A program made the position numbers and the translations under genes. The notes below the pieces were generated by a model. That model was not told the origin of the DNA, did not search any database, and saw nothing but the letters and a program-made list of their open reading frames with translations. Shown here piece by piece: positions 63,189 to 63,625 of a DNA stretch of 64,000 bases. The stretch lies in assembly GCF_003790525.1 (NCBI RefSeq), contig NZ_CP033635.1. One strand, written 5' to 3'. The number at the start of each line of letters is the position of its first letter. Within the stretch, counting starts at the first letter, position 1. The DNA comes from Escherichia coli. Its GTDB lineage: Bacteria; Pseudomonadota; Gammaproteobacteria; Enterobacterales; Enterobacteriaceae.

Positions 63189-63265
63189 TGGTCGGCGAGA
63201 GAGGATTCGAACCTCCGACCCACTGGTCCCAAACCAGTTGCGCTACCAAGCTGCGCTACTCGCCG
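63189..63265 (-). tRNA. proM: tRNA-Pro (anticodon UGG)
   Basis: 77-nt cloverleaf on the minus strand ending CCA; anticodon loop uuUGGga; T-arm GGTTCGAATCC. Confidence 0.9.
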
Positions 63266-63306
63266 AAATACTGCTTTTTGAATTTTTAGTTCAATTCTTT
63301 AAAGTC

Positions 63307-63394
63307 GTGGTGCGAGGGGGGGGACTTGAACCCCCACGTCCGTAAGGACACTAACACCTGAAGCTAGCGCGTCTACCAATTCCGCCACCTTCGC
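63307..63394 (-). tRNA. leuT: tRNA-Leu (anticodon CAG), long variable arm
   Basis: Minus strand GCGAAGGTGGCGGAATTGGTAGACGCGCTAGCTTCAGGTGTTAG...CACCA; boundaries +/-1 nt. Confidence 0.9.
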
Positions 63395-63414
63395 ATTGTC
63401 ACAACTTCTAATAA

Positions 63415-63491
63415 TGGGGTGGCTAATGGGATTCGAACCCACGACAACTGGAATCACAATCCAGGGCTCTACCAACTGAGCTATAGCCACC
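63415..63491 (-). tRNA. hisR: tRNA-His (anticodon GUG) with extra 5' G(-1)
   Basis: Minus strand GGTGGCTATAGCTCAGTTGGTAGAGCCCTGGATTGTGATTCCAG...CCCCA. Confidence 0.9.
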
Positions 63492-63548
63492 ACTACAAAT
63501 CTTGTTACGCGGTATTACTACCACCGCAGCTCAAGCGCCGGGACTAAA

Positions 63549-63625
63549 TGGCGCGCCCGACAGGATTCGAACCTGAGACCTCTGCCTCCGGAGGGCAGCG
63601 CTCTATCCAGCTGAGCTACGGGCGC
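63549..63625 (-). tRNA. argX: tRNA-Arg (anticodon CCG)
   Basis: Minus strand GCGCCCGTAGCTCAGCTGGATAGAGCGCTGCCCTCCGGAGGCAGAGGTCTCAGGTTCGAATCCTGTCGGGCGCGCCA. Confidence 0.9.

Follow-up and report, generated by a model that had tools for sequence, protein, structure and literature searches.

The argX-hisR-leuT-proM tRNA operon of Escherichia coli SMS-3-5 lies in an unoccupied context and is unlinked to four strain-variable blocks of the same region

The 3' ends of tRNA genes are common attB sites, and islands and prophages linked to them are marked by an integrase gene beside the tRNA gene and a repeat of the tRNA 3' end. The locus studied here shares with these systems only the presence of a tRNA gene. 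Unlike them, it has no integrase, no repeated 3' end, no adjoining foreign DNA and no shift in composition. Its counterpart is the argX-hisR-leuT-proM operon of K-12 MG1655 (b3796-b3799), with the same gene order, the same anticodons and the same flanks, thrP and aslB. In K-12, transcription of these tRNA genes begins at the promoter pArgX, on which ppGpp acts as an inhibitor and DksA as a modulator (PMC5137449). RNase E frees pre-proM from the polycistronic precursor through cuts located 3, 4 and 15 nt upstream of proM, and takes off the proM terminator in one step by cutting between GACCA and AUUUUG (PMC5291269). RNase E is slowed by Hfq, which binds the proM precursor made up of the leuT-proM spacer, proM and the 3' trailer (PMC10710024). 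Further away, Salmonella enterica carries the same four genes in the same order at its argX-hisR-leuT-proM (hisR) locus, with about 95% identity over 491 nt; this copy belongs to a different genus and diverges by some 5% from the operon described here. We met the Salmonella operon in two chromosomal contigs filed among phages, during a search of a phage collection.

We analysed a stretch of 64,000 nucleotides (the 64-kb window) whose host strain is SMS-3-5, whereas the reference operon is that of K-12. We are nearly certain that what the window holds is the housekeeping argX-hisR-leuT-proM operon in its ancestral, unoccupied context, with thrP upstream and aslB downstream, that no island, prophage or integrase is attached to it, and that the four variable blocks of the window are unlinked to tRNA genes. 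The RefSeq annotation of SMS-3-5 runs through the window from fadB to thrP, with well-known core genes and a few strain-variable ones. Positions 62000-64000 are 100% identical to NC_010498.1 4261647-4263647 on the reverse strand, and any window position equals 4325647 minus the position in that record. Upstream of argX the window extends for another 375 bp; what lies beyond was taken from the SMS-3-5 annotation only (wecG and wzyE, both core genes).

Over its whole length, the window differs from NC_010498.1 4261647-4325646 at four single bases (8232, 24307, 44905 and 60885), none of them near the operon. All four differences are nonsynonymous (TatA E79Q, AllG-like A88E, SAM hydrolase T4R and AslA G298C) and they are spaced about 16-20 kb apart. 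They could possibly stem from another isolate, a revision of the sequence or an edit. The best-matching E. coli strains seem to carry other bases than the window at 24307 and 44905, because the best E. coli matches to two of the variable blocks described below, B and D, imply one mismatch each; for block B, the matches with one implied mismatch include the SMS-3-5 record. We had considered the 99.9% identity of the top matches to block D as a sign of a different locus, but it is explained by one of these four single-base differences.

A scan of the whole window with ARAGORN calls four tRNA genes, all on the minus strand, between 63189 and 63625, and the Rfam tRNA model (RF00005) matches the same four loci at 48.5-69.7 bits (E-values of 2.6e-07 to 3.9e-13; gathering score of 29 bits). 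From both tools, their order along transcription is Arg(CCG), His(GUG), Leu(CAG) and Pro(UGG) (Table 1). An earlier reading made from the sequence only had placed a four-tRNA operon, argX-hisR-leuT-proM, at these positions: both methods return the same limits and the names agree with the K-12 annotation. Its outer ends are exact, and a small correction applies to hisR, which should span 63415-63491. By ARAGORN alone this gene covers 63415-63490, with the encoded G-1 sitting at 63491; the K-12 gene is annotated with 77 nt because mature tRNA-His keeps the encoded G-1. Neighbouring tRNA genes are 58, 20 and 42 nt apart when the ARAGORN limits are used. The same reading had all four genes intact and abutting aslB and yifK (now thrP), and we agree on both counts. 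The thrP stop lies at 63728, 102 bp upstream of argX, and the aslB start codon at 63042, 146 bp past the proM 3' end, with both genes on the same strand as the operon in the SMS-3-5 and K-12 annotations.

Table 1. Positions in the window of the variable blocks and of the parts of the tRNA operon.
Feature	Positions	Strand	Description or setting	Basis or occurrence
Block A	13175-18769		5.6 kb, between rmuC and udp	1452/5426 genomes (27%)
Block B	20602-29144		8.5 kb, between ysgA and metE	1553/5426 genomes (29%)
Block C	41185-42727		1.5 kb, GC 0.33, between rarD and corA	2623/5426 genomes (48%)
Block D	44813-45806		1.0 kb, between yigE and uvrD	2412/5426 genomes (44%)
3' trailer and predicted Rho-independent terminator	63152..63188	-		terminator scan; fold
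proM	63189..63265	-	tRNA-Pro(UGG), 77 nt, 5' end = C	ARAGORN; Rfam 65.8 bits; = K-12 b3799
leuT-proM spacer	63266..63307	-	42 nt, A/U-rich; in K-12 holds the RNase E cuts that free pre-proM	sequence; = K-12
leuT	63308..63394	-	tRNA-Leu(CAG), 87 nt, long variable arm	ARAGORN; Rfam 48.5 bits; = K-12 b3798
hisR	63415..63491	-	tRNA-His(GUG), 77 nt with G-1	Rfam 69.7 bits; = K-12 b3797
argX-hisR transcribed spacer	63492..63548	-	57 nt, counting G-1 in hisR	sequence; = K-12
argX	63549..63625	-	tRNA-Arg(CCG), 77 nt	ARAGORN; Rfam 64.1 bits; = K-12 b3796
Predicted pArgX promoter	63647..63675	-	-35 TAGACA, 17-bp spacer, -10 TATTAT	consensus scan, 10/12 positions

That these four genes form one operon is supported by the scans, which predict pArgX as the single promoter and a Rho-independent terminator behind proM. 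An A+T-rich stretch at about 63678-63693 precedes pArgX and a G+C-rich discriminator, CCACCCCCG, comes after the -10 element, a layout that would be expected for a stringently controlled stable-RNA promoter; transcription would start at about 63635-63640. At the other end, AUUUUG comes right after the proM CCA and is followed by a 9-bp G+C-rich hairpin with a 4-nt loop and by a U-tract. The hairpin lies at scan coordinates 63183-63162 (-16.6 kcal/mol and a z-score of -2.3 on folding), and hairpin and T-tract together span 63183-63152. The 3' context of proM, GACCA followed by AUUUUG, is exactly the RNase E site given in Table 1 of PMC5291269.

In a global alignment with MG1655, the window is 100% identical from the thrP stop through the terminator, a segment that includes the four genes, the three spacers and the promoter. 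Between the thrP stop and the aslB start, there are five substitutions (63137, 63136, 63107, 63100 and 63075) and no indel. All five lie past the terminator, in front of aslB, so that nothing in the genes, spacers, promoter region or terminator differs from the reference operon. Given this identity, co-transcription in SMS-3-5, its regulation by ppGpp and DksA, and processing by RNase E and RNase P would probably be as in K-12. The single sigma-70 promoter pArgX, under stringent control, would yield one precursor ending at the Rho-independent terminator after proM. RNase E would cut the A/U-rich spacers into separate pre-tRNAs and, in the case of proM, would also cut right behind the CCA to remove the terminator. 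RNase P would form the 5' ends, with the encoded G-1 staying on tRNA-His, and the 3' ends of the argX, hisR and leuT tRNAs would be trimmed by 3' exonucleases.

We looked in several ways for traces of an element integrated at the operon. A blastn-short comparison of the complete tRNAs, 45-mers and 25-mers of their 3' ends and 40-mers of their 5' ends to the 64-kb window, in which the operon was masked, gave best matches of only 9-11 exact bases and 18-21.8 bits. These are no better than those obtained in 20 Markov-shuffled windows (mean of 20-22.6 bits, maximum of 23.8-29.5 bits). Within the operon, matches of 11-13 bases arise from GGTTCGAATCC, a T-arm sequence common to argX, hisR and proM. 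As for genes, the SMS-3-5 RefSeq annotation of the 64 kb is free of integrase, transposase and phage genes other than xerC, the core chromosome-dimer recombinase, which sits in the dapF-yigA-xerC-yigB cluster at the same position as in K-12, about 14.5 kb from proM. Unannotated DNA adds up to 4.7 kb, with a largest gap of 469 bp, and the 16 intergenic regions that measure 140 bp or more gave no match of any kind at E <= 0.1 when all six frames were scanned with Pfam; the spacers flanking the operon are among those that came out empty. The sequence-only reading, which had reported neither an integrase gene at the operon nor a duplicated tRNA 3' end, is thus borne out on both points. It had also named a tRNA 3' duplicate or an integrase remnant anywhere in the window as findings that would speak against it; both were searched for and neither was found, although remnants of up to 60 codons could escape the six-frame scan, since it missed an annotated fragment of 62 codons. 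This fragment, a 186-bp pseudogene of the DKNYY family called by PGAP at about 51634-51819, lies in the largest gap, between lptM and cyaY (51476-51944), and K-12 annotates yzcX in the matching cyaY-lptM region.

The surroundings of the operon give the same picture. Positions 45807-64000 align to K-12 as a single collinear match of 18.2 kb with 96.4% identity, and therefore no foreign DNA adjoins the operon. GC content is 0.45-0.55 over 59-64 kb and 0.495-0.537 beside the operon, without any foreign-looking block. There is also no room for an insert, with the short gaps inside the operon and only 102 and 146 bp in its flanks.

An element could nonetheless have been integrated here in the past, most likely at the proM 3' end, and later have been excised precisely or have decayed without a scar, leaving an empty attB. 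What makes this thinkable is the common use of tRNA 3' ends as attB, together with the fact that precise excision would be traceless in the sequence. We nevertheless consider it very improbable. Besides the lack of partial repeats and integrases in the window, the proM-aslB spacer differs from that of K-12 by substitutions only (five, with no indel), and our literature search found no paper joining proM with an island, an integrase or an integration site. The population data point in the same direction: using the 2-kb segment at 62000-64000 as a query, aslB, the tRNA genes and thrP follow one another without a break in 5419 of 5426 complete E. coli genomes, and no interruption in the spread sample that we took from the ranked genome matches was an island. 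One of the sampled genomes, FDAARGOS_1276, has an IS200/IS605-family element between proM and aslB, in the U-tract right after the proM terminator hairpin (1466-1924 of the extracted locus; insertion point at about 63156-63161 of the window). Another has an IS1 inside aslB, and another has no match beyond the tRNA-Leu gene. Among the sampled matches, the changes were limited to IS insertions and a tandem duplication inside the operon, and none of the E. coli genomes examined showed an island at this locus. Phage records, finally, yielded diverged whole phage tRNA genes or host DNA, and no partial identity of the attP kind. An operon that has stayed unoccupied is the reading that we retain.

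The internal tandem duplication deserves a description of its own. In E. coli O157:H7, a five-gene variant occupies the same locus, with the same promoter, flanks and tRNA sequences as the operon of the window, which has the simple four-gene form. The variant bears a 226-bp tandem duplication whose junction falls in the T-arm sequence common to proM and hisR. It reads argX-hisR-leuT, followed by a 5' part of proM fused to the hisR 3' end, and then leuT-proM. The proM/hisR chimera is unannotated and its acceptor stem cannot pair. In the example of DEC4E (NZ_CP038398.1), positions 1390-2052 of the extracted locus correspond to 63189-63625 of the window, and the junction sequence is present at 99% identity or more in 288 records, a count that refers to an identity band and is not based on coverage. 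The duplicated tRNA 3' fragment of O157:H7 is a product of unequal recombination inside the operon, without any integrating element.

Matches in phage genomes that looked like attP candidates were all set aside: they were diverged whole tRNA genes of phages, Salmonella contigs and one contig that is probably host DNA. The latter, OR851160.1 ('Salmonella phage S.Kent 1-2-1', labelled 'UNVERIFIED_ORG'), is 2.6 kb long, has 3x coverage and comes from a phage preparation. At 1360-1565 it has a leuT-proM pair with 98% identity to that of the window and the same terminator, and a different promoter-like sequence upstream of leuT, where hisR would be. We rejected it as a phage attachment site, as it is probably contaminating bacterial DNA of another enterobacterium.

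A further idea is suggested by the population counts, as no complete E. coli genome examined had an island at argX, hisR, leuT or proM: beyond being unoccupied in SMS-3-5, the operon may resist integration. We regard this as unlikely. If it were so, a possible cause is that integration would disrupt the tight polycistronic layout, in which the spacers measure 20-58 nt and the terminator is fused to the RNase E site of proM. Alternatively, it is possible that no integrase has evolved specificity for the sequences of the operon.

The window does contain DNA that varies between strains. Its alignment to K-12 leaves four segments without a counterpart, blocks A to D (Table 1). Pfam assigns to block A an IclR regulator, a DgoK-like kinase, a KDPG-type aldolase, and TctC, TctB and TctA, which make up a tripartite transporter. 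Block B encodes an isochorismatase-family hydrolase, an AllH-like protein, FdrA, an AllG-like protein, a carbamate kinase, a protein with an allophanate-hydrolase C-terminal domain, a cytosine/purine permease and a LysR regulator, again by Pfam. FdrA and the AllG-like and AllH-like proteins amount to a second set of oxamate-carbamoyltransferase-like genes, and the block has 129 matching places on plasmids. In block C, a DUF3289 (YPO3983-family) protein and a DUF943 membrane protein replace yigF and part of yigG of K-12. Most of its carrier genomes (1605 of 2623) match it at only 80-90% identity, and the locus therefore has strongly diverged alleles. Block D has a gene of the SAM hydroxide adenosyltransferase family (Pfam). 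At its site, K-12 carries a palindromic REP-like element of about 106 bp instead, which resembles the one in the aslA-aslB spacer of the window (61676-61781) at 77-79% in both orientations.

These blocks might be thought of as tRNA-targeted islands, acquired at a tRNA site and later parted from it by rearrangement. They are truly variable (27, 29, 48 and 44% of the 5426 genomes for A, B, C and D), and the low GC content of block C, 0.33, also counts in favour. Yet each block lies between core genes that are adjacent in K-12 (rmuC/udp, ysgA/metE, rarD/corA and yigE/uvrD). All 17 proteins of the four blocks match metabolic, transport, regulator or DUF families of Pfam, and no recombinase was found among them. 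The longest direct or inverted repeats at block boundaries are of 8-10 bp, at the level of chance (shuffled mean of 8.5-9.1, maximum of 11-12). No tRNA fragment occurs in the window outside the operon. No block touches a tRNA gene or any other small-RNA gene, and the nearest one ends 17.4 kb from proM. The small-RNA genes in question are few: besides the tRNAs, Rfam matches only EsrE (10182-10433, minus strand, 318.7 bits), inside the 3' end of ubiJ, and GlmZ (59378-59584, minus strand, 218.4 bits), between hemY and aslA. Both are annotated in K-12 and absent from the SMS-3-5 RefSeq annotation. On this evidence, an origin of the blocks at a tRNA site is highly unlikely. The sequence-only reading had reached the same conclusion, that the accessory blocks are not tRNA-associated, and this part of it stands; its 'therefore', drawn from the empty operon alone, was a little loose. 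The conclusion rests instead on the lack of any further tRNA gene or tRNA fragment in the window and on the 17.4 kb, with core genes, that separate proM from the nearest block.

The weakest alternative, that at least one of the four tRNA genes is decayed or non-functional and the operon not intact, has a negligible probability: it is refuted by the identity of all four genes to the functional K-12 ones, and stands against Rfam scores well over the gathering threshold and a 3' CCA encoded in every gene.

The housekeeping operon of SMS-3-5 is thus already known, and the observation of its empty flanks is correct but ordinary. In itself the operon is of little import, being a textbook case in work on promoter control and on RNase E and RNase P processing; among the side observations, the 226-bp duplication of O157:H7 stands out most. 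The value of the result lies in what it says about the rest of the window, since the tRNA cluster can be dropped as an explanation for the strain-variable DNA. Without recognisable mobility machinery, the variable blocks are better treated as insertions or deletions between core genes.
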